DNA from: a virus
Taxonomy: Duplodnaviria > Heunggongvirae > Uroviricota > Caudoviricetes
Length of the DNA stretch: 44,051 nucleotides
IMG/VR virus record: IMGVR_UViG_3300045988_124839
Strand: one strand, 5' to 3'
A program made the position numbers and the translations under genes. Under the pieces are notes generated by a model, which worked only from the letters and a program-made list of their open reading frames with translations, was not told the origin of the DNA and did no database searches. Position 1 is the stretch's first letter, and every line of letters starts with the position of its first letter. Shown here in pieces: positions 13,019 through 40,464 of this stretch.

Positions 13019-13984
13019 TTAATTATCAGTAGATTGTTCCTCTAGTAACAACTCAATTCTGCTTAGTATTTCTTTAGATATTTTTCGGCTATCAATTTTT
13101 ATAGTTACAAAATTACCTTTATATCTAGCCGTGATCCCTTCCCCATATTTTTTCTCGTCTTTTGTTTTTTCCTCGTCGCCAACCAGAACAGAGTCAGATA
13201 ATATTTGTATAATCCGTGAAGCTTCTAAATCCTCGCCGTTTTTTTTAATTGCCAGAAGATGATGAGCAGCATTGCTCATGGCAGCCATGTTTTTTTTGTA
13301 GACCTTAAACAAAGAATCTCCAGCACGAGCTGACAGTTCTCCTGGATGATTGAAGATAGCTAATATATCTTTTGGTAGACCAGCTGTATTAATACAGCGA
13401 GTGATAATATTTCTGTCTATATTTTCAGCCTCGGCTAATGCTTTAACGTTACCATCAAAGTCATTTAGCTTGCGTAAGTATCTCTTTCCTCTTTCGTATG
13501 CACTAATAGGCCTATAATCGTTACCAATTTGGGATAACCAATGCATCTGTTCATCGTCGAGATCACCTATTAAGACGCGATAGTCACATCCTGTTAATAT
13601 CGCTGCTTTTCTTCTACGTGAGCCGTCAGCGACTTCAACGATTCCAGACACTTTTCTGGCGAAAGCTGGATTTTGTTGTCCAGACGTTAGAAAAGATGGG
13701 ATTAAATCGGCTAGAGAGGATTCATTTAATAAATCTTGATCGCGTTCATTACCTAGCCATACCATTGTTGCCATTTCAACTTTATCTGCGGGAATTGTCT
13801 CTAACTTAAAGTTAACATTACGTCCGCATACTGGCAAAGTTATGCTGTTACCGGTTAATGAACTCAGTTGACGTTTTAAATCACCAACCATAGGTGATAC
13901 GGGCTGATGTTCAGGGGCATGATGATTATTACTCATAATGCGATTAATATCTGGAGCATTTTTTAGAAGAGAGCGCTGTTTCAT
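13019..13984 (-). CDS. sopB: partition protein SopB (ParB-type centromere-binding protein)
   Basis: 321 aa; immediately downstream of and overlapping (ATGA) the ParA-type ATPase gene; size and arrangement as F/N15 sopAB. Confidence 0.85.
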   Translation of the reverse strand: MKQRSLLKNAPDINRIMSNNHHAPEHQPVSPMVGDLKRQLSSLTGNSITLPVCGRNVNFKLETIPADKVEMATMVWLGNERDQDLLNESSLADLIPSFLTSGQQNPAFARKVSGIVEVADGSRRRKAAILTGCDYRVLIGDLDDEQMHWLSQIGNDYRPISAYERGKRYLRKLNDFDGNVKALAEAENIDRNIITRCINTAGLPKDILAIFNHPGELSARAGDSLFKVYKKNMAAMSNAAHHLLAIKKNGEDLEASRIIQILSDSVLVGDEEKTKDEKKYGEGITARYKGNFVTIKIDSRKISKEILSRIELLLEEQSTDN

Positions 13985-15150
13985 TATTCGTTCTCCCAGC
14001 GAGGTTTTATTAGATCATCAAAAATTTCTCGGCAAACAGGGTCCCATATAGAAACAGCATTTCTCCATGCATTCAATGTTGAACGTTGGTTTGCTGCTTG
14101 TTCAAATACTGTTCTCATTTTTATCTGGCCTTTACCTACTTCATCGGTAACGCGTACAACCTGACGTAATACCATTGATCCCCATGTATTTCTTATTTGT
14201 TCTTCCATCCATCGTGATTGATTCCCTGTAGTGAGACTATATTTAGTCAGAAGTAAGCGAACGGTTGGCTCAAATCCACCTAGGTCAACGCTTTCCAATA
14301 GATCGAGAAGCATTGTGAAAAACTGTAGAACAGAAGCGTAATCAAATAATTCTGCAGGTGTAGCAACAACAATAACGTCAGCGGCACAAACAACGTTAAT
14401 GGTTCCTGTACCGAGGTTCGGAGCACTATCTATAACGATAACATCGTAGTTATCCCAAACTGATTCAATAGCTGCGCGCAGCATAAGGTGTGGAGGATGA
14501 GGCAATTTACCCTGAGCATGATATTGCATGAGATCTGTTTCTATACGATGTAAAGCTAGGCAGCTAGGGATAATGTCTAGCCCAGGCCAACATGTTGGCT
14601 TTATAGCATATTCAGCGTTATCGCGTTCTCCTAAGTAAAATGGCAGTAAAGTATCCTCGGCATGGATATGTAAATCAGGAACATAACCGTGATACATAGA
14701 GGCCGTGCCTTGAGGATCGTTACCTTCAACCAAAAGAACACGATGACCTTGTAATGCTAACCATTGAGCTTGATGTACCGCAGACGATGTTTTATAAACG
14801 CCGCCTTTGTGTGACATAACGGCAAGCACAACAGGGTTTTTATCTTGTGGTCGTTGGTTTGGGTTGCCAAAAACTGCTCGCATACTGTTGATTTGATCTA
14901 TGGTATAACCAGCACGACGTTCAATTCTTCCTCTCATTTCAAAGTCAGGTGCAGGTAAACGCCCGCTCTTCTCAGCATCTCTAATTGCTTGAGGAGTTAC
15001 ACCAATTAAATCTGCTACTTCAGTTATACCCCATCGGCGGGTGATACGCCGAGCTTCAGGACTATCATCACCGAATTGAGCGATAGCAATTGCTTGGGTC
15101 ATTTCTTGACCTCTCGTAACACAATCTTGCAATAACTTTTTCAAAGACAT
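13984..15150 (-). CDS. sopA: partition ATPase SopA (ParA, type Ia with N-terminal HTH extension)
   Basis: 388 aa; deviant Walker A MSHKGGVYKTSS; long N-terminal extension typical of type Ia ParA. Confidence 0.9.
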   Translation of the reverse strand: MSLKKLLQDCVTRGQEMTQAIAIAQFGDDSPEARRITRRWGITEVADLIGVTPQAIRDAEKSGRLPAPDFEMRGRIERRAGYTIDQINSMRAVFGNPNQRPQDKNPVVLAVMSHKGGVYKTSSAVHQAQWLALQGHRVLLVEGNDPQGTASMYHGYVPDLHIHAEDTLLPFYLGERDNAEYAIKPTCWPGLDIIPSCLALHRIETDLMQYHAQGKLPHPPHLMLRAAIESVWDNYDVIVIDSAPNLGTGTINVVCAADVIVVATPAELFDYASVLQFFTMLLDLLESVDLGGFEPTVRLLLTKYSLTTGNQSRWMEEQIRNTWGSMVLRQVVRVTDEVGKGQIKMRTVFEQAANQRSTLNAWRNAVSIWDPVCREIFDDLIKPRWENE

Positions 15151-15164
15151 ACTGTCATCTCCAG

Positions 15165-15250
15165 CTTGTAACTTTGCTTAATAATTAAATCTTTGCTTAT
15201 TTCTAGCAAATTTGCATGAAAAAGGCAAAGCAAAACGAAAAACGCAAAGG
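15165..15250 (-). promoter_or_regulatory. sop operon promoter/operator region with CTTTGC/GCAAAG motifs
   Basis: CTTTGC at 15172 and 15191, GCAAAG at 15225 and 15244, palindrome GCAAATTTGC at 15206-15215, directly upstream of sopA. Confidence 0.5.
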
Positions 15251-15434
15251 TGAATATTTGAGCTAAATCATCTTTTGTTCCCCTCCCGAAATGCATAAAA
15301 CGAACAACGATATAATCATAACTAATTGATATTTATTATCTTTTTTAAAGAAAGGAAATCATGTAAAACTAGGGAAACATGATAAGAATCATCAATGAGA
15401 TACGTTTTCTCTATTAGTTCTCCCAATCTTACCA

Positions 15435-15585
15435 ATACGAGAACATAAACAGAGAACATAAAAATCAAGTAATGATACAAACACAACAAAGAACATAAAT
15501 AAAGAATTAAAACCAATGCTAAATAAAGCAGTACATAATATGAGAACATTACACCAAATGAGAACATTAATCAAGAACACAACGA
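15435..15585. repeat. array of (G/A)AGAACAT direct repeats left of the telomere-resolution palindrome
   Basis: GAGAACAT at 15439, 15452, 15542, 15560; AAGAACAT at 15489; AAGAACAC at 15574; AT-rich region without plausible coding. Confidence 0.7.
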
Positions 15586-15586
15586 A

Positions 15587-15628
15587 ACATAATTCCCCAT
15601 TATACGCGCGTATAATGGGGAATTATGT
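15587..15628. other. telRL: telRL-like telomere resolution site (42-bp perfect palindrome, protelomerase target)
   Basis: ACATAATTCCCCATTATACGCGCGTATAATGGGGAATTATGT is a perfect palindrome; core CCATTATACGCGCGTATAATGG matches the N15 telO core as recalled; 170 bp upstream of telN. Confidence 0.88.
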
Positions 15629-15798
15629 GCTGATCTTTAGAACAGAGTCAAGGAACAAATTTTGACGTTCCGATATTGTGTTTTTGTTTATTATCCGTTA
15701 TTATGTTCTGTTAGTTTATGACTAAGTTAACGCGTTATTAGTTATCTTATTCTCAAATTGTGTTACGATAATCCGAGCGGACAATCAGGAGAGGAAAG

Positions 15799-17706
15799 AT
15801 GAGCAAAGTAAAAATCGGTGAATTAATAAACTCACTTGTTAGCGATGTTGAGTCAATAGATAACTCTGACCGTCCTCAAGGGGAAAAAACAAAAAAAATA
15901 AAAGCTGTTGCATTAAAATTTAAAAATGCATTATTTAATGACAAGCGAAAGTTTAGGGGGAAAGGATTAGAAAAAAGAATTACAGCCAACACATTCAATG
16001 CCTATATGAGCAGGGCCAGAAAACGGTTTGATGATAAACTTCATCATAGCTTTGAAAAAAATATACATCGCCTATCTGAAAAGTATCCTTTATATAATGA
16101 GGAGCTATTATCATGGCTTTCTCTACCTGCTGCCGATATTCGCCAGAGAATGTCAGCTTTACAGGCAAAATTAAAATTAATTCTCCCTTTATCAGAAGAT
16201 TTATCTAATATCAGAATTGGTGATAACAAAAGTCATAATAAGTTATTAAAATTATCAAATAAATATAAAGAGTGGCAATTCGCCATTTCTGATTTAACTA
16301 GCGATAACTGGAAAGATAAGCGCGATTATTTATATAAATTACTACAGCAAGGATCTGCCTTACTTGAGGAGTTGAATCAGCTAAAAGTTAACCATGAGAT
16401 TCTCTATCATCTTCAACTAAGCCCTGCCGAACGCGCATCTATCCAGCAACGATGGGCAGACGTTCTGCACAATAAGAAACGTAACGTGGTGGTCATTGAT
16501 TACCCTAAATATATGCAAGCTATTTACGATATTATAAATAGCCCTGCTACATTAAATAATCTAAACACTCGTTCAGGTATGGCTCCTTTGGCATTTGCAC
16601 TTGCTGCATTGTCAGGAAGACGAATGATTGAGATTATGTATCAAGGTACATTTACTGTTTCTGGTAAGTATACCGTTGATTTTTTAGGCCAAGCAAAAAA
16701 AAGAACTTCTGATGATATAACCAGAAAAATATATACATTATGCGAAGCAAAAACATTTGTTTATTTAATAAATGTACTTCGCTCATGCCCAGCAGCATCT
16801 GATTTTGATGATGTCGTTAAAGGTTATGGAGATAACGACACACGCTCTGAAAACGGACGGATTAATGCCATATTAGCAAAGGCTTTTAACCCGTGGGTTA
16901 AATCATTTTTCAAAGATGACCGCCGTGTTTATAAAGATAGTCGTGCTATTTATGCCCGTATTGCGTATGAAATGTTTTTCCGCGTAGATCCTCGTTGGAA
17001 AAACGTAGATGAGGATGTTTTCTTTATGGAAATTTTAGGCCATGACGATGAAAACACTCAATTACACTATAAGCAATTCAAGCTGGCCAACTTCTCAAAG
17101 ACATGGAGGCCAAATACTGGAAACGAAAATACCAGGCTGGAAGCATTGCAGCAGCTTGATGACGAAATGCCAGGATTCGCCAGAGGAGATGCCGGAGTTC
17201 GTCTGCATAACACAGTTAAGCAGCTGGTAGAGCAGGACCCCTCTATAAAAATCACGAACAGCACTCTAAGAGCATTCAAATTTAGCCCTACAATGATTAG
17301 TCGATACCTGGAATTTGCTGCTGATGCTCTGGGGCAATTTGTTGGCGAAAATGGACAATGGCAGCTGAAAATAGATTCTCCAGAAATCGTTATGCCTGAC
17401 GAAGAAGAGCTGGAAGCAATACCTGAACAGACGGATGAATTATCAGAGGATGACGATCTGGATGACGACGAAATTGAGATAGAGGAAGAGGAAGAGGAAG
17501 AGGAAGAGGAAGAGAGCGTAGAAGAACAGCAACCGCCCGCGCCTTCTTCACCTGTATCTAAGCCGGTATTTAAGCCTGTGAGAAATATTGGTGATGGCTC
17601 ATACGTTGTTGAGTTTCATTATAATGGCCAGAATTATGCTTGGTCCGGCAGTGCAAACAGCCCTATATCAGCAATGCAGTTAGCATGGCTGACATATTTC
17701 GGATAA
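15799..17706 (+). CDS. telN: protelomerase TelN
   Basis: 635 aa; N-terminus MSKVKIGELIN...RPQG.KTK.IKA...KNALFNDKRKFRGKGL.KRITANTFNAYMSRARKRFDDKLHHSF and much of the body match N15 TelN as recalled; acidic Glu/Asp-rich C-terminal tract; RBS AGGAGAGGAAAG. Confidence 0.95.
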   Translation: MSKVKIGELINSLVSDVESIDNSDRPQGEKTKKIKAVALKFKNALFNDKRKFRGKGLEKRITANTFNAYMSRARKRFDDKLHHSFEKNIHRLSEKYPLYNEELLSWLSLPAADIRQRMSALQAKLKLILPLSEDLSNIRIGDNKSHNKLLKLSNKYKEWQFAISDLTSDNWKDKRDYLYKLLQQGSALLEELNQLKVNHEILYHLQLSPAERASIQQRWADVLHNKKRNVVVIDYPKYMQAIYDIINSPATLNNLNTRSGMAPLAFALAALSGRRMIEIMYQGTFTVSGKYTVDFLGQAKKRTSDDITRKIYTLCEAKTFVYLINVLRSCPAASDFDDVVKGYGDNDTRSENGRINAILAKAFNPWVKSFFKDDRRVYKDSRAIYARIAYEMFFRVDPRWKNVDEDVFFMEILGHDDENTQLHYKQFKLANFSKTWRPNTGNENTRLEALQQLDDEMPGFARGDAGVRLHNTVKQLVEQDPSIKITNSTLRAFKFSPTMISRYLEFAADALGQFVGENGQWQLKIDSPEIVMPDEEELEAIPEQTDELSEDDDLDDDEIEIEEEEEEEEEEESVEEQQPPAPSSPVSKPVFKPVRNIGDGSYVVEFHYNGQNYAWSGSANSPISAMQLAWLTYFG

Positions 17707-17717
17707 AGCATACGGTA

Positions 17718-17741
17718 AAGGCACCGAATTATCGGTGCCTT
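17718..17741. terminator. hairpin terminator between telN and the leftward genes
   Basis: AAGGCACCGA-ATTA-TCGGTGCCTT (10-bp stem) followed by GTTGTGTGG on the + strand. Confidence 0.6.
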
Positions 17742-17751
17742 GTTGTGTGGT

Positions 17752-17916
17752 CTACCTCGCCTGCCCCTTTTCGTCCTCATCCAACTTTCTGATGGCCGTA
17801 GAATCAATACCCGCCGCCATACACACATCAGATGCAACAAACCACGGTTCGCCGTTGATCATCACTACACGAACCTGATGCTCTTCCTGAAAGGAAAATA
17901 CTGCTAACGCGCTCAT
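17752..17916 (-). CDS. short BRO-N-like ORF (possible antirepressor N-terminal fragment, 54 aa)
   Basis: Hand translation MSALAVFSFQEEHQVRVVMINGEPWFVASDVCMAAGIDSTAIRKLDEDEKGQAR; GEPWFVA.DV core resembles BRO-N domains; GGAGG 4 nt before ATG; not in the ORF track because it is under 60 aa. Confidence 0.4.
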   Translation of the reverse strand: MSALAVFSFQEEHQVRVVMINGEPWFVASDVCMAAGIDSTAIRKLDEDEKGQAR

Positions 17917-18146
17917 TCAGCCTCCTTATCGTGCAGCAATTGCGACGAGAGCGATGCTGAATAACCCTGTGCTTCGTGTGTTAGCTCACACGCAATTTGA
18001 AGGAGTTTCCCTGCTTCTGAGAGATAAATCGACGCCTCACAACTGGAGATTGTTCGATGGGCTGATGATACGAGCGCATAGACCTGAGCCAGACGTTCAT
18101 CCAACGATTCCAGCAGGCCAACAGTGTTCATTTTTACCTGATTCAT
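17913..18146 (-). CDS. hypothetical protein (77 aa)
   Basis: ORF with GAGGTGG RBS; stop overlaps the start of the next ORF (ATGA). Confidence 0.4.
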   Translation of the reverse strand: MNQVKMNTVGLLESLDERLAQVYALVSSAHRTISSCEASIYLSEAGKLLQIACELTHEAQGYSASLSSQLLHDKEAE

Positions 18147-19727: not shown

Positions 19728-19919
19728 TTACTCCCCGTTCACCGAAAATTCACGATAGAAACGTTTCCACATACGATAAGTCTGCGCAAATTGTTCACCA
19801 CGAAACATCGCCTTCCTGGCCTTCATGTTTTCCTTGTGAGACTTTCGGTCTATGAACCAAAACCATAGATGGAACACACAAAGCAAGAGACACAAAGATA
19901 ATATCCAATCATTACCCAT
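19728..19919 (-). CDS. small hydrophobic protein (63 aa)
   Basis: Internal ATG at 19919 overlapping the repA stop; hydrophobic segment LSLCLLLCVFHLWFWFI. Confidence 0.35.
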   Translation of the reverse strand: MGNDWILSLCLLLCVFHLWFWFIDRKSHKENMKARKAMFRGEQFAQTYRMWKRFYREFSVNGE

Positions 19920-22900
19920 AGAAAGCGCCCTGCTCTTCGTAGCTGCATGAGCTATTCCCCGTAATGTATTCACGTAACCGCCGCAGCTCATTGCTGGAAA
20001 GGTGATCCATGAACTCTGTGAGGTACAGGGATGCAAACGTCATAGCTATGCTGGCTGATGACCATGATGACATAGTGGCCAACTCCTCACTGGAAAGCGC
20101 ACTCATCGCCCAGGACTCAGGTACAGCCACTGGCAACACGGCCAAAGCCTCAGAAATTACTGAATGAGGGGCGTTTTGAACCTGCTCGTTTGTGGATCGC
20201 GTTTTATCATCCATATATATATTGAGATCCAAATCGCGATCCATTTCGATGGCTGTCTTCTCGGCTTTACGCGTTTTTAGGGTTAGGCCATCTTTCTGAC
20301 GCTGAACAAGAATATCCAGCATAAATGCCGCTGATTCAGGCTCAACAAAACGCAAGGTTGGACGCTTATCGCCGTCTCTGCCGCGACGTTTACCTGTTTT
20401 AAGGCCAAGAGAGTCGCAAATGTTTTTAAACAACGCTTCCGGCACTTTAGGCTTCCCTTTTGGCGTCATAAAACCACCAATGTGCAGAACGTTATTCAAC
20501 AGGTCACGGCGTTCGGCTGTCATGAGGTTATCTCGAGCGAATTTGAGACGCTCCTGAGTCGCCTCGCCGGTCATAGTCTCAGGGTTGATACCGCAGTCGA
20601 TAAAGTACTGCCGGAGAGTTGCTGATTTAAGCGCATAGAAACCGCGCGCCCCGACTTCAACAGTAGGAGTAGCTTTTACCTTGTGATCGATTATTCCAGG
20701 GAATTTAGTTTTAAAGACATCATCAGCCTGCTCGCGAGTCATCGCGGTCACTACAAAATATTGCCACTGTCCCGCCTGACGGTATGCGTAGGTAAAATTG
20801 ATGGCTGCTTCTTCCCGGTCGTAACGACGAGCTGTTACCTCATCTAAAAGCATTGTTTCATAGCGGCGAATTTTGTCTCGAGCACCATCGAAATAGAATT
20901 TTAGCGTGCCTTCTTCAACCGGTAGTTTCAGTTCGTTTTCAATATCCCAGCGGACAAGTTTTGCCTGTTCTTCAAGCGTCAGCGCGCGTTTTTTTAGCAG
21001 TTCTTCACGCTCTGATTCTTGTGGAGTTTCTGTATTGAGGTGCAGATCCAGTGTCTGTTCCCACACAATATCCCGCGCTTCTTTACGCAGATCTTTACCG
21101 ATATCATTCGCAGCATAATCGGTGGCCAGCGGCGATACCTTATAACCGTCGCTGTGCATGATGCAGATCATGTTGCTGGCGTAGTCGTTACGCGCAGTCG
21201 CTTCAATTGCGGCTGCTTTAATTTTCATCCTGGTAAAGTCGGTATTGGCCACCCCCATTGATATACGGTCGCCATCGAAAACGACATCCGTCAGTTCACC
21301 GTTCATACCTGCGGTAGCAAGCAATGCCTGGGCGAATGCTCGTTCTATTTTTTGCGGGTCAGTTTCACGTTTTGCACGAGCTTTATCAAAGCCGATAATA
21401 AATTCTTTCGCTGTACGGTCGCGGCGTAGCATTTGCACTGCGTCGCTGGGTACAACTTCACCACAGAACATGCCGAAATGACGGTCAAAATGTTTTTGCT
21501 CAATCGACACGCCGGATGAAATAGACGGGCTATAAATCAGGCCGTCGTATTTTTTGACCATCTTTTTCGGTTGATTGGTAAATGCTTCAACTTCTGGCTC
21601 TGGTTTGTTTTTCTGGTTTACACACAGAAATTTCTTACCAGGAAAATGCATTCTCAGGGTGGCTGTCACATCTTCTGCAAAGGTGGAGCTGTCGGTGGCC
21701 AACATGATTTTTTCCCCATCCGATACAGCTTTCACCACCTCGGTCATGATGCGATCTTTTTCTGTATAAAAAACCCGGATTGGCTCACCTGTTTCGCGGT
21801 TGCGAACATCAACAGGTAATTCAATTACGTGGATCTGCAGCCATGCCGGTAAACCTAGTTCTTCACGGCGTTTCATAGCCAGTTCAGCCAGGTCAACCAG
21901 CAGATCGTTCGCATCAGCATCTACCATGATTGGGTGTTGTTCCGTTCTGGCCAGCGCGTCAATTAGCGTATTGAATACAGCCACCGGGTTTTCCATAGCC
22001 CGACCGGAAAGAACGGCACGTAGCCCTTGTGTGGCCTCGTCAAAGCCAAAATAGTCGTGCTGGCGCATCAACGGTTGCCAGCAGTTTTTAACAATCGAGT
22101 TTATGCAGATGGTCAGTTTACTGGCGTATGGAGCCATTTCCTGATAGCCAGGATCCTGATAGTGCAGGATATCGGCTTTTACACCTTTTCCTTCTGTCAT
22201 CATTTCCCACAGGCCACCAATAAGGGAGACACGGTGAGCAACAGAGATACCACGTTCTGAGCTATGCATTAACGGTCGTAACAATCCAGTAGATTTGCCG
22301 GAACCCATACCAGCACGGACGATGACTATCCCCTGTAGTGATTGCACGTACTTCAGGACATCATCGGTCATTACCGAAGTTTCAAAACGCTTATAGGTGA
22401 TATGTTGAGGGCGTTTATTGGGATCAGTTATGCGTTCGCTGAAAGAGCGCGGAGCCTGGGCAATACGGCACTTTTTATTCAGGCGACGGGCAATGTGGTC
22501 TTTTACCGTAGCGCGATAGATATTTTCCAGTCCCATTTCACGCAGAACGATGCAGAACATGTTAAATAAATCTGACGGACTGTTAGGAACCGGACAGGTT
22601 AGCATGCCAATATCAACCGCTCTCAGCAGCTCTTTGGCAAAAGTACGACGGTTATCCCGCTTAATTGTCTTCAGGCGGTTGAGCGTCAGAGATAGCAAAT
22701 CAGTACCGGTTTTCAGGCGGTTTGCTGTTGCAAATAGTTGACGTGCTGTTTCACGAAGTCCACGTAGTTTGTGCAGGTCGTTGAAGTCACTGCACTCCAT
22801 TTGCGGATCGTCTTCAAAAGTTGGATAGACGCAGCGGACATCGTTGAATTTCGATAAGATTTCATAGCCAGTCCGCAGGCCTGTATTCCCTTTTCCTTCT

Positions 22901-23907
22901 GTGGCAGATTTCCGGTCATTATCCAGTGCGCAGGTGATTTTTGCCGCCGGGTACATGTTTACCAGTTGTTCCACAACATGAACCATGTTGTTAGCGGATA
23001 CAGCGACAACCACAGCGTCAAAGCGTTTATCTTTTTTCGTGGCAAGCCAGATGGATGCACCAGTAGCAAAACCTTCTGTAACAGCGATGTTTTGCGCCCC
23101 TTTCAGCTCACCGATAACAAAGCAGGCACCGACGAAATCGCCGCTGGTTACTGCGCTGGTCTGGTATTTCCCACCTTGTTTGTCGATTCGCTGCCAACCC
23201 ACAATACGACCATCATAACGACCGTCCAGGTGAGCCAGAGGGATAGCCATATATGTGGTTGGCCCCCGGCTCCATTTCGCACTGTCGTGACTGGTCACGC
23301 GACGCACATCACATGAACTAAAAACGTCACGAATACCTTTTTTAATCGCATATGGCCATGAGCCGTCTTCAGCCGGAGCATGTTCCCACGCGCTGTGGAA
23401 TGCCAGCCATCCCAGCAAACGTTCATGGTCCATTTGGTTGTTTTTCAGGTCATTAATTCGTTTTTGTTCTTCACGGCGACGACGTGCTTCGGCCTGACGT
23501 TCTATTCTTTCCCGTTCTTCTTCCGGTTGTGCGACCACGGTCGCATTATTCCGTTGTTGCTCACGGCGATATTCAGAAAACAGGAAGGAGAAACCGCTCC
23601 ATGAGCCAGCATCGCTGCCTTTATGGACGAAGTTAATGAACGGGTAATCAATCCCTTTGCTGTGTTCCAGCCTGGAGTAAATTTCTACGCGTCCTTTCAG
23701 GCTCTTTTCGAGAGCTTCTGGAGATGTTTTATTGTATGAAGAGTAACGCTCACCCCCCCCGCGAGGGTTGAGTTGGATGTTGTCGGAACAGGCAGGCCAG
23801 TTGATACCAGCCATCTGTGCCAGCTCGGTTAGTTCATCCCGTGCTGCTTCAATTAGCGAGAACGGATCGCTGCCAAAGCGATCCGCATAGAAATCGTTTA
23901 ATGTCAT
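19912..23907 (-). CDS. repA: replication protein RepA (primase-helicase)
   Basis: 1331 aa; Walker A GMGSGKST; size and position (leftward, between telN and cB) as N15 RepA (about 1320 aa). Confidence 0.85.
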   Translation of the reverse strand: MTLNDFYADRFGSDPFSLIEAARDELTELAQMAGINWPACSDNIQLNPRGGGERYSSYNKTSPEALEKSLKGRVEIYSRLEHSKGIDYPFINFVHKGSDAGSWSGFSFLFSEYRREQQRNNATVVAQPEEERERIERQAEARRRREEQKRINDLKNNQMDHERLLGWLAFHSAWEHAPAEDGSWPYAIKKGIRDVFSSCDVRRVTSHDSAKWSRGPTTYMAIPLAHLDGRYDGRIVGWQRIDKQGGKYQTSAVTSGDFVGACFVIGELKGAQNIAVTEGFATGASIWLATKKDKRFDAVVVAVSANNMVHVVEQLVNMYPAAKITCALDNDRKSATEGKGNTGLRTGYEILSKFNDVRCVYPTFEDDPQMECSDFNDLHKLRGLRETARQLFATANRLKTGTDLLSLTLNRLKTIKRDNRRTFAKELLRAVDIGMLTCPVPNSPSDLFNMFCIVLREMGLENIYRATVKDHIARRLNKKCRIAQAPRSFSERITDPNKRPQHITYKRFETSVMTDDVLKYVQSLQGIVIVRAGMGSGKSTGLLRPLMHSSERGISVAHRVSLIGGLWEMMTEGKGVKADILHYQDPGYQEMAPYASKLTICINSIVKNCWQPLMRQHDYFGFDEATQGLRAVLSGRAMENPVAVFNTLIDALARTEQHPIMVDADANDLLVDLAELAMKRREELGLPAWLQIHVIELPVDVRNRETGEPIRVFYTEKDRIMTEVVKAVSDGEKIMLATDSSTFAEDVTATLRMHFPGKKFLCVNQKNKPEPEVEAFTNQPKKMVKKYDGLIYSPSISSGVSIEQKHFDRHFGMFCGEVVPSDAVQMLRRDRTAKEFIIGFDKARAKRETDPQKIERAFAQALLATAGMNGELTDVVFDGDRISMGVANTDFTRMKIKAAAIEATARNDYASNMICIMHSDGYKVSPLATDYAANDIGKDLRKEARDIVWEQTLDLHLNTETPQESEREELLKKRALTLEEQAKLVRWDIENELKLPVEEGTLKFYFDGARDKIRRYETMLLDEVTARRYDREEAAINFTYAYRQAGQWQYFVVTAMTREQADDVFKTKFPGIIDHKVKATPTVEVGARGFYALKSATLRQYFIDCGINPETMTGEATQERLKFARDNLMTAERRDLLNNVLHIGGFMTPKGKPKVPEALFKNICDSLGLKTGKRRGRDGDKRPTLRFVEPESAAFMLDILVQRQKDGLTLKTRKAEKTAIEMDRDLDLNIYMDDKTRSTNEQVQNAPHSVISEALAVLPVAVPESWAMSALSSEELATMSSWSSASIAMTFASLYLTEFMDHLSSNELRRLREYITGNSSCSYEEQGAFYG

Positions 23908-24771: not shown

Positions 24772-24813
24772 TTATAGCTGGCTATAAAATTTATTTATTA
24801 TAGCTGGCTTTAA
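24772..24813. promoter_or_regulatory. putative operator repeats in the cB-cro intergenic region
   Basis: TTATAGCTGGCT occurs twice (24772-24783, 24798-24809); the first copy is part of the imperfect palindrome TTATAGCTGGCTATAA; TATAAT-like hexamer just upstream of the cro ATG. Confidence 0.5.
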
Positions 24814-25769: not shown

Positions 25770-26015
25770 ATGTTCAGGAAACCGTCGAAGCCAGAATTAA
25801 GGTATTCGGGGGTAAGAAATGAATATGTTATCTGGTGTCCAACTTGTGGTTACAGGACACGACCAGATAGTAATAAGCAGTCTGTAATTGCCGATTGGTA
25901 TTTATCAAATCAGCCAGGTAATAAGCATATAGAAAATCTTTGGATTAAGCGTTACTTGGAAATCAGAGAGGGTGCGACCGTGGTCGCACAAGAAAATGAA
26001 AATAACGCCATTTAA
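25770..26015 (+). CDS. small zinc-ribbon-like protein
   Basis: From the internal ATG at 25770; CPTCGY motif; the 3' end contains centromere-like palindrome 1. Confidence 0.35.
   Translation: MFRKPSKPELRYSGVRNEYVIWCPTCGYRTRPDSNKQSVIADWYLSNQPGNKHIENLWIKRYLEIREGATVVAQENENNAI
25972..25989. other. SopB-binding-like centromere palindrome 1 (GTGCGACC-GT-GGTCGCAC)
   Basis: 8-bp inverted arms around a 2-bp centre, same architecture as the F sopC core TGGGACC-AC-GGTCCCA; one of four copies in the window. Confidence 0.7.
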
Positions 26016-30983: not shown

Positions 30984-31001
30984 GTGCGACCACGGTCGCA
31001 C
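30984..31001. other. SopB-binding-like centromere palindrome 2 (GTGCGACC-AC-GGTCGCAC)
   Basis: Same 8-2-8 palindrome as site 1 with the centre inverted; about 20 bp upstream of a putative promoter. Confidence 0.7.
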
Positions 31002-33993: not shown

Positions 33994-34011
33994 TTGCGAC
34001 CGTGGTCGCAC
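33994..34011. other. SopB-binding-like centromere palindrome 3 (TTGCGACC-GT-GGTCGCAC)
   Basis: 8-2-8 palindrome with one mismatch at the first base. Confidence 0.65.
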
Positions 34012-34213: not shown

Positions 34214-34231
34214 GTGCGACCGTGGTCGCAC
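34214..34231. other. SopB-binding-like centromere palindrome 4 (GTGCGACC-GT-GGTCGCAC)
   Basis: Perfect copy of the site-1 sequence, 23 bp upstream of the cassette gene start. Confidence 0.7.
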
Positions 34232-35978: not shown

Positions 35979-36009
35979 GCCGGATATTAATGCAAGTGAT
36001 AATTATTCT

Positions 36010-36237
36010 CACCTTTGCGGGTCCTTTCCGGCGATCCGGCAGGCTACGGGGCGGAAGGCGCGCGGGTTTTCGCTATTTATGAAAATTTTCCGGTTTAAGG
36101 CGTTTCCGTTCTTCTTCGCCGTAACTTAATGTTTTTATTTAAAACACCCCCTGAAAAGAAAGGAAACGACAGATGCTGAAAACGGGCTTTTTGGCCTCTG
36201 TCGTTTCCTTTCTCTGTTTTTGTCCGTGGAATGAACA
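36010..36237 (+). other. cos: cos region (cosQ/cosN/cosB-like) upstream of Nu1
   Basis: ...GGGTCCTTTCCGGCGATCCGGCAGGCTACG / GGGCGGAAGGCG / CGCGGGTTTTCGCTATTTATGAAAATTTTCCGG... is near-identical to the lambda right-end/left-end junction as recalled, except inside the 12-nt cosN position (36049-36060). Confidence 0.75.
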
Positions 36238-36757
36238 ATGGAAGTCAACAAAAAGCAGCTGGCTGATATTTTCGGTGCGAGTATCCGTACCATTCAGAAC
36301 TGGCAGGAGCAGGGAATGCCCGTTCTGCGAGGCGGTGGCAAGGGTAATGAGGTGCTTTATGATTCTGCCGCCGTCATAAAATGGTATGCCGAAAGGGATG
36401 CTGAAATTGAGAACGAAAAGCTGCGCCGGGAGGTTGAAGAACTGCGGCTGGCCAGCGAGGCAGATCTTCACCCCGGAACACTTGAATTTGAGCGCCATCG
36501 CCTGACCCGTGCTCAGGCGACGGCGCAGGAACTGAAAAATGCCAAAGAATCGGCTGAAGTGGTGGAAACCGCATTCTGTACTTTCGTGCTGTCGCGTATA
36601 GCAAGGGAAATATCCAGTATTCTCGACGGTATTCCTCTGTCGGTGCAGCGACGTTTTCCTGAGCTGGATAACCGGCATATTGATTTCCTGAAACGGGATA
36701 TCATCAAAGCCATGAACAAAGCAGCCGCGCTGGATGAACTGATACCGGGGTTGCTGA

Positions 36758-36783
<26 letters not shown>
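36238..36783 (+). CDS. Nu1: terminase small subunit Nu1
   Basis: 181 aa; MEVNKKQLADIFGASIRTIQNWQEQGMPV... matches lambda gpNu1 as recalled. Confidence 0.95.

Positions 36784-40464
<3,681 letters not shown>

Follow-up and report, generated by a model that had tools for sequence, protein, structure and literature searches.

All known protelomerases cut their target with a stagger of 6 bp, and in the site of TelK the bases CGCGCG lie between the scissile positions (PMC3558466). TelK was crystallised on a 44-mer, to which it binds as a head-to-head dimer with the DNA bent by 73 degrees (PMC3575837). [quoted passage not shown] The natural target in phage N15 is a region of 310 bp with degenerate copies of the L3/R3 motif, named L1/L2 and R1/R2 (PMC12624138). 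N15-like phage-plasmids that combine lambda-like structural genes with a phiKO2-like plasmid region are known in Escherichia and Shigella (bioRxiv 10.1101/2025.09.12.675607).

A perfect palindrome of 42 bp was studied in a tailed-phage sequence of 44,051 nucleotides (Caudoviricetes; IMG/VR record IMGVR_UViG_3300045988_124839), referred to below as the window. An initial annotation, made from the sequence alone, had proposed a telomere resolution site with arms distinct from those of N15. The palindrome is very probably the telRL of a temperate, lambda-tailed Escherichia phage-plasmid of the N15/phiKO2 type, resolved at 15607/15608. It marks the window as a linear phage-plasmid and provides the coordinates of the prophage ends.

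The palindrome and its gene context

The two arms of 21 nt, ACATAATTCCCCATTATACGC and GCGTATAATGGGGAATTATGT, are 100% complementary and meet at the dyad without a spacer, as the initial annotation had described. At the base composition of the window, 9e-9 palindromes with arms of at least 21 nt are expected in 44 kb. The runner-up perfect palindrome in the window has arms of 9 nt, and the maximum found in 200 shuffles was 11. The central features are:

15587-15628, unstranded: telRL core, the 42-bp perfect palindrome with its dyad between 15607 and 15608
15597-15618, unstranded: telO, 22 bp (CCATTATACGCGCGTATAATGG), the same as telO of N15 and phiKO2
15605-15610, unstranded: CGCGCG, the putative hairpin-turn bases, between the predicted scissile phosphates

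The inner 22 bp are identical in the window, N15 and phiKO2. They form a telO-type dyad site with the central CGCGCG, and the match to N15 named in the initial annotation was confirmed against the centre of the annotated N15 telRL repeat. When the 6-bp stagger is applied to this site (PMC3558466), the scissile phosphates would lie at 15604/15605 on the top strand and at 15610/15611 on the bottom strand.

The palindrome is located between two divergent genes, sopA and tel, as in N15 and phiKO2. The genes of the plasmid region are:

15799-17706, + strand: tel, a 635-aa protelomerase with TelK_N, muzzle, catalytic and stirrup domains and conserved R275, K300 and H415/Y424 motifs
13984-15150, - strand: sopA (ParA ATPase), divergent from tel
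13019-13984, - strand: sopB (ParB-type centromere-binding protein)
19912-23907, - strand: repA-like primase/helicase of 1331 aa, belonging to the linear-plasmid replication module and annotated in relatives as 'CyRepA1 family' or 'primase'

The 635-aa ORF matches all four Pfam domains of TelK (E 1e-25 to 1e-50). It was aligned with phiKO2 TelK (PDB 2v6e; E=2e-295) and is 81% identical to it over residues 1-536 and 77% identical to N15 TelN. The catalytic motifs are kept, being SGRR at 272-275, K300 and H415...Y424. We take the roles of these residues from TelK and TelN, of which the aligned tyrosine (Y424) is presumably the nucleophile. The C-terminal part of the protein (window 17400-17706) contains a long acidic tract with a run of 14 consecutive Glu, which separates the stirrup domain from a short C-terminal domain.

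The distance from the dyad to the ATG of tel is 191 nt in the window, 193 nt in N15 and 190 nt in phiKO2, and 191-193 nt in about 30 other loci. The gene order of the window is that of N15 and phiKO2. Its remaining part carries lambda-like tail, head and terminase genes with 93-97% nucleotide identity to lambdoid phages. Upstream of sopA an imperfect palindrome with CTTTGC/GCAAAG repeats was observed at 15191-15230; it resembles what we take to be the SopA operator motif of F and is likely the autoregulatory site (sop operator) of sopAB. A promoter scan of the sopA-tel intergenic region was uninformative, with two sites found and 4.2 expected.

A palindrome in this intergenic region could also be an operator or a bidirectional intrinsic terminator for the divergent sopAB and tel, with no role in cleavage. 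It is flagged by a terminator scan on both strands and its single-stranded fold is strong (-17.5 kcal/mol, z = -8.1), but sopA and tel are both transcribed away from the site, so that no transcription reads into it, and the T tracts after the stem are poor (tails TTCGTTGTGT and GCTGATCTTT). Either role would moreover have to be played by a duplex palindrome that is absent in the prophage, where it is split into two ends, and identity to an experimentally defined cleavage site explains the palindrome fully. We consider this explanation very improbable. Binding of the protelomerase may well also affect the sopAB and tel promoters, as an addition to telomere resolution and not as an alternative to it.

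The position beside sopAB, together with the fact that partition sites are often palindromes, would fit a centromere palindrome for partition by the ParB-type SopB. The chance of this appears negligible, as the inverted repeat of the F-sopC-like type (GGGACC..GGTCCC) was not found at the 42-bp site and a separate F-sopC-like palindrome, with which the 42-bp site shares nothing, occurs dispersed in the window:

23531-23544, 25974-25987, 30986-30999, 33996-34009 and 34216-34229: five perfect 14-bp palindromes GCGACC(AC/GT)GGTCGC, against 0.79 expected at the two-mismatch setting

These five copies are probably the SopB centromere sites, and their spread fits what we take to be the dispersed centromere arrangement of N15.

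Half-sites and accessory repeats

To place the telomere resolution site in its family, it was aligned on the dyad with telRL of N15 (NC_001901 24775-24830, annotated 'cut at 24802/3') and of phiKO2 (NC_005857 29121-29170); half-site positions are counted from the dyad outwards. The tel-side half-sites read GCGTATAATGGGGAATTATGTGCTGAT in the window, GCGTATAATGGACTATTGTGTGCTGAT in N15 and GCGTATAATGGGCTATTATGTGCTGAT in phiKO2. Further sites were collected by a scan for the exact telO 22-mer, which gave 37 IMG/VR stretches and one GTDB representative genome, a Pseudocitrobacter, the single match among those genomes. This DNA scan was more productive than a protein-based locus search of IMG/VR, which gave three loci, the poly-Glu tract of the protelomerase having saturated the pattern scan. 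Pooling of the telO scan with phage and plasmid records resulted in 36 distinct half-sites of 30 nt. Among these, the invariance of positions 1-11 is a product of the selection of sites by exact telO. Conservation is strong at positions 12, 15-17 and 19-27, and variation is free at 13, 14 and 18 (with C 18, G 9, A 5 and T 4 at position 13).

From telO to position 21, the window differs from the left arm of N15 at two of ten positions and from the right arm at four of ten, with all of the differences confined to positions 12-14 and 18. The G of the window at position 12 is the standard base of the family, to which the N15 right arm is the one exception. The window segment GGGGAATTATGT carries common states at every variable position. 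On the tel side, an outer arm of the L3/R3 type (ATTRTGTGCTGAT) is present: positions 15-27 read ATTATGTGCTGAT and match N15 R3 at 12 of 13. Conservation at these positions reaches 30-36 of the 36 family half-sites, the variable position 18 excepted. The arm continues beyond the palindrome into the following feature:

15629-15634, + strand: GCTGAT, family-conserved outer part of the R3-like tel-side arm; on the left, 15581-15586 read AACGAA, not ATCAGC

The match to the N15 R3 box (GCTGAT) thus extends past the perfect palindrome on the right flank, with homology over the whole 27 nt. The perfect symmetry ends at 21 nt, giving 42 bp, because the sop-side arm carries TTCGTT at positions 22-27. 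In this half-site the inner arm (positions 15-21) is present and TTCGTT stands in the place of the outer box GCTGAT; on the top strand the window reads ...AACGAA-ACATAATTCCCC... where the family reads ...ATCAGC-ACAYAAT.... The outer ATCAGC box, which the left half-site of the window does not have, is conserved in 31-32 of the 36 family half-sites. The TTCGTT variant was found on the sop side only and in one E. coli sublineage (contigs L007, L019, L020, L035 and L042, and plasmid p2 of E. coli E1), and a near variant, TTCGCT, occupies the same positions in L034. A left half-site of this kind could bind more weakly. The mirrored outer arm on the sop side was not taken as defining for the site, since replication turns each telomere into a perfect palindrome of its own, which is then resolved.

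Nine IMG/VR contigs (L007, L011, L013, L016, L020, L035, L036, L037 and L042) and the RefSeq plasmid E. coli E1 p2 share the exact 42-mer. Co-variation of the arms with the protelomerase clade, as a sign of altered specificity, was considered and rejected, the states of positions 13, 14 and 18 being mixed across the TelN-like, TelK-like and E. coli clades. Since the states at the variable positions are common and mixed among clades, the 'distinct arms' give no indication of a new specificity. The description of the arms as distinct from N15 is accurate for positions 12-14 and 18, but overstates their novelty, as they are homologous to N15 L3/R3 and to phiKO2 telRL. It also passed over the real peculiarity of the site, a sop-side arm without the conserved outer ATCAGC box.

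The closest full-length relative, the MARGA_3 plasmid (L046, NZ_JAUDQL020000005.1 36300-37000; 99.5% identical), differs by one T-to-A change within telO (GCGTAAAATGG), so that the palindrome is interrupted at position 6 of one arm. This position is invariant in all other collected sites, which are those found by exact telO match, and the change is either a sequencing error or a natural variant.

The palindrome is the centre of a 'tos'-like region of about 320 bp with mirror-oriented repeats (15442-15764):

15442-15592, + strand: left array of eight [AGC]ACAYWA motifs (L-type), starting at 15442, 15455, 15480, 15492, 15545, 15563, 15576 and 15586, the last being the outer arm
15623-15764, - strand: right array of four inverted copies, at 15623-15629 (the arm), 15676-15682, 15701-15707 and 15758-15764

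The 7-nt motif [AGC]ACAYWA is the outer arm itself (ACATAAT). Eight copies on the + strand lie within 150 bp to the left of the dyad and four on the - strand within 160 bp to the right, and no copy in the opposite orientation was found in the flanks. Outside the palindrome there are ten copies, seven on the left (+) and three on the right (-), against 2.2 expected from dinucleotide-preserving shuffles of both flanks; none of 2000 shuffles reached ten. N15 and phiKO2 keep the right-hand copies at the same offsets (+68/69, +93 and +150), and the mirror layout is also seen in other relatives. These ACAYAAT-like repeats match the L1/L2/R1/R2 copies of the N15 'tos'. They probably function in extra binding of the protelomerase, in protection of the telomeric ends or in regulation of the tel and sop promoters. 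The left array counts 8-10 copies in the lineage of the window and four in N15.

Physical ends in relatives, the cos site and the state of the window

Plasmid p2 of E. coli E1 (RefSeq, linear, 50,720 bp) contains a perfect inverted duplication of 4065 nt centred on TACGC/GCGTA, which corresponds to 15607/15608 in the window. Its left flank is that of the window in the 60 nt displayed and in 81 of 81 nt in a second comparison. This fold-back is the signature of long reads rounding a hairpin, so that a hairpin with the sop-side arm of the window exists in a lysogen. YDC107_1 folds back on the tel side, and pPEC011-4 terminates exactly at ...CCATTATACGC. In many complete-genome records, the sequence begins or stops at a distance of 0-100 nt from the dyad, or the match sets in only at the palindrome's edge, and several IMG/VR contigs end in short fold-backs on one side or the other. 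The GenBank record of PhiR46_1, a linear prophage with a tel side 98.7% identical to the window, starts with a 'telL site' by the protelomerase gene and ends with sopBA and a 'telR site'. A literature search for PhiR46_1 and for 'telomerase occupancy site' found nothing.

The mapping of prophage ends proposed in the initial annotation could be made by proxy, in assemblies of close relatives and not in the sample of the window, and places the hairpins at 15607/15608. By the sequences of these near-identical plasmids, the hairpin ends of the prophage would be at the centre of the dyad. The proposal of a telomere resolution site is therefore strongly supported by the sequence, the synteny, the cognate enzyme and the folded-back or terminated assemblies of near-identical plasmids.

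Several 'complete' records of the lineage are marked circular or contain artificial inverted duplications of up to several kilobases (L047, NZ_CP104505.1 1-8200; L002, CP025712.1; records of 60-90 kb), because assemblers read through the hairpin telomeres. In the fold-back records, sopA and the protelomerase are annotated twice. The coordinates of the prophage ends matter for annotation in this respect, many records of the lineage being 'circular' or carrying such duplications of up to tens of kilobases.

Given these records, the palindrome or its junction might itself have been made by an assembler that read through or joined hairpin ends. Fold-back artefacts are common in the family (YDC107_1, E1 p2, L009, L010, L017, L027, L033 and L037), several RefSeq relatives, for example MARGA_3, were deposited as 'circular' with cos and telRL intact, and a 42-bp palindrome common to both hairpin ends allows a de Bruijn graph to join them. 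In the window, however, the flanks are different unique sequences, sop side and tel side, and not mirror images, with symmetry ending at 21 nt, which excludes a pure fold-back artefact. The sop/tel junction recurs in independent contigs (L020, L035, L036, L028 and L034), in MARGA_3 and in the N15 virion genome, and virion and circularised DNA must hold an uncut telRL. Even if the join were computational, each half would be a genuine telomere half-site. An assembly artefact is thus considered quite improbable. The junction in the window could have been physically sequenced, from virion or circular DNA, or been joined by the assembler through the shared palindrome, and the identification of the site as telRL is unaffected by this.

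The second site that bears on the form of the window is cos:

36049-36060, + strand: cosN, predicted 12-nt cohesive end GGGCGGAAGGCG, aligned to the N15 ends and to a lambda-like cosB

Upstream of the Nu1-like gene (36238-36783), the sequence ...TACG GGGCGGAAGGCG CGCGGGTTTTCGCTATTTATGAAAATTTTCCGG... can be aligned to the ends of N15 (GGGCGGCGTCCG). The lambda sticky end, which we take to be GGGCGGCGACCT, was searched for in the window together with its extended version, and no match was obtained at up to one mismatch. A lambda sticky end shared by N15 was also considered and is wrong, the cosN of N15 being GGGCGGCGTCCG. The segment that follows cosN in the window aligns with what we take to be lambda cosB and is almost identical to it. 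In this context (35990-36240), the variant cosN and the cosB-like segment are followed by the Nu1-like and A-like terminase genes; a changed cohesive end beside a conserved cosB is unusual.

Both cos, with its variant cosN, and telRL are intact in the window, and neither is found at a window end. The window is therefore an uncut, circularly permuted representation, in agreement with the initial annotation on both points.

On the model of N15 and phiKO2, virion DNA would circularise via cos after infection, and lysogenisation would proceed from this circle. A dimer of the 635-aa protelomerase would bind both half-sites of 21-27 bp and cut both strands 6 bp apart about the dyad, giving 3'-phosphotyrosyl intermediates. 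The self-complementary CGCGCG 5' ends would then rejoin to the opposite strand and form a pair of covalently closed hairpins, with telL on the side of tel and telR on the side of sopAB. The resulting linear plasmid would replicate from the repA module, and replication would give the ends telLL and telRR, which are perfect palindromes by their origin and would be resolved by the same reaction every generation. With each end regenerated from a perfect palindrome of its own, there would be no need for the two arms to remain identical, which explains a possible drift of the sop side at positions 22-27.

Variation on the sop side and comparison with known systems

When 13019-15607 and 15608-18000 of the window were compared with the same regions in L001/L006 (PhiR46_1), L028 and L036, a mosaic boundary was found at the dyad. 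The sop side divides into two allele classes that are about 87.7% identical to each other, and the tel sides of both classes keep an identity of at least 98%, with L034, which is more divergent, as the exception. Types of partition incompatibility may differ with the sopAB allele.

Of mild interest are the outer box that the sop-side telomere has naturally lost and the abrupt change in divergence at the dyad between the two sop-side classes. A tentative reading, which we rate as rather unlikely, is that the sop-side telomere lost its outer GCTGAT box, elsewhere almost invariant, yet was kept as a hairpin end, a 21-bp half-site sufficing in vivo, perhaps aided by the enlarged array of eight repeats, and that co-resident phage-plasmids exchange arms preferentially at the tel site. 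Such an exchange could take place by homologous recombination in the conserved core or by protelomerase-mediated fusion of telomeres. If this reading is true, the replicated sop-side junction has the degenerate arm on either side of the dyad and needs to be resolved in each generation, which would be natural evidence that a 21-bp half-site suffices in vivo.

The 42-bp site is real and almost certainly functional, and an ordinary member of a well-known family. It is an uncharacterised allele of a well-understood element and reveals no new mechanism, and it adds a natural variant to the TelK and TelN substrates used in biotechnology, for instance for linear closed DNA vectors.

The telRL/tos of N15, target of TelN, has the same 22-bp telO in the same place, 191-193 nt upstream of the protelomerase gene and past the divergent sopA. 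It shares with the window the R3-type arm on the tel side (ATTATGTGCTGAT in the window, ATTGTGTGCTGAT in N15) and the mirror-oriented accessory repeats with their right-hand offsets of +68/69, +93 and +150. N15 telRL is, however, an imperfect palindrome of 56 bp with a perfect core of 22 bp, whereas the perfect core of the window is 42 bp. The two sites differ at positions 12-14 and 18, the window has AACGAA for the left outer ATCAGC, the sop-side repeats number four in N15 and eight in the window, the protelomerase is 77% identical to TelN, and the cosN is GGGCGGAAGGCG in the window and GGGCGGCGTCCG in N15.

The telRL of phiKO2, target of TelK, also has the same telO, and its tel-side half-site differs from that of the window at two of the first 27 positions (13 and 14). 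Its protelomerase is 81% identical over the crystallised residues 1-536 and has the same four domains as that of the window. The annotation of the phiKO2 site covers 50 bp, of which the symmetry is imperfect past 14 nt. phiKO2 further differs from the window in its host (Klebsiella) and in its virion module, the structural genes of the window being lambda-like with 93-96% nucleotide identity.

PhiR46_1 (PV340565), YDC107_1 (CP025712, Ravinvirus) and plasmids of E. coli, Shigella and E. albertii (E1 p2, MARGA_3 unnamed2) belong to the same lineage as the window, with tel sides 98-99.5% identical. In PhiR46_1, telL and telR are annotated at sequence homologous to that of the window, and E1 p2 has the identical 42-mer and left flank. 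PhiR46_1 and YDC107_1 have GGGAAATT where the window has GGGGAATT, a symmetric change on both arms, and carry the canonical ATCAGC box on the left; their sopAB side is of a different allele class, about 87.7% identical.

The pal site of PY54 is also a perfect palindrome of 42 bp upstream of tel, with the same central TACGCGCGTA. Outside these central 10 bp it is unrelated (its half up to the dyad reads ACCTATTTCAGCATACTACGC), and icd lies between spyA and the site. A PY54-type pal was considered for the window and rejected, the shared sequence being TACGCGCGTA only and the arms unrelated; the equal length of 42 bp is a coincidence. ResT of Borrelia and TelA of Agrobacterium belong to the same reaction class, in which a dimeric tyrosine enzyme cuts with a stagger of 6 bp and yields hairpins (PMC3558466), but act on unrelated targets, are without muzzle and stirrup, and maintain chromosomal or plasmid telomeres and not a phage lysogenisation site.
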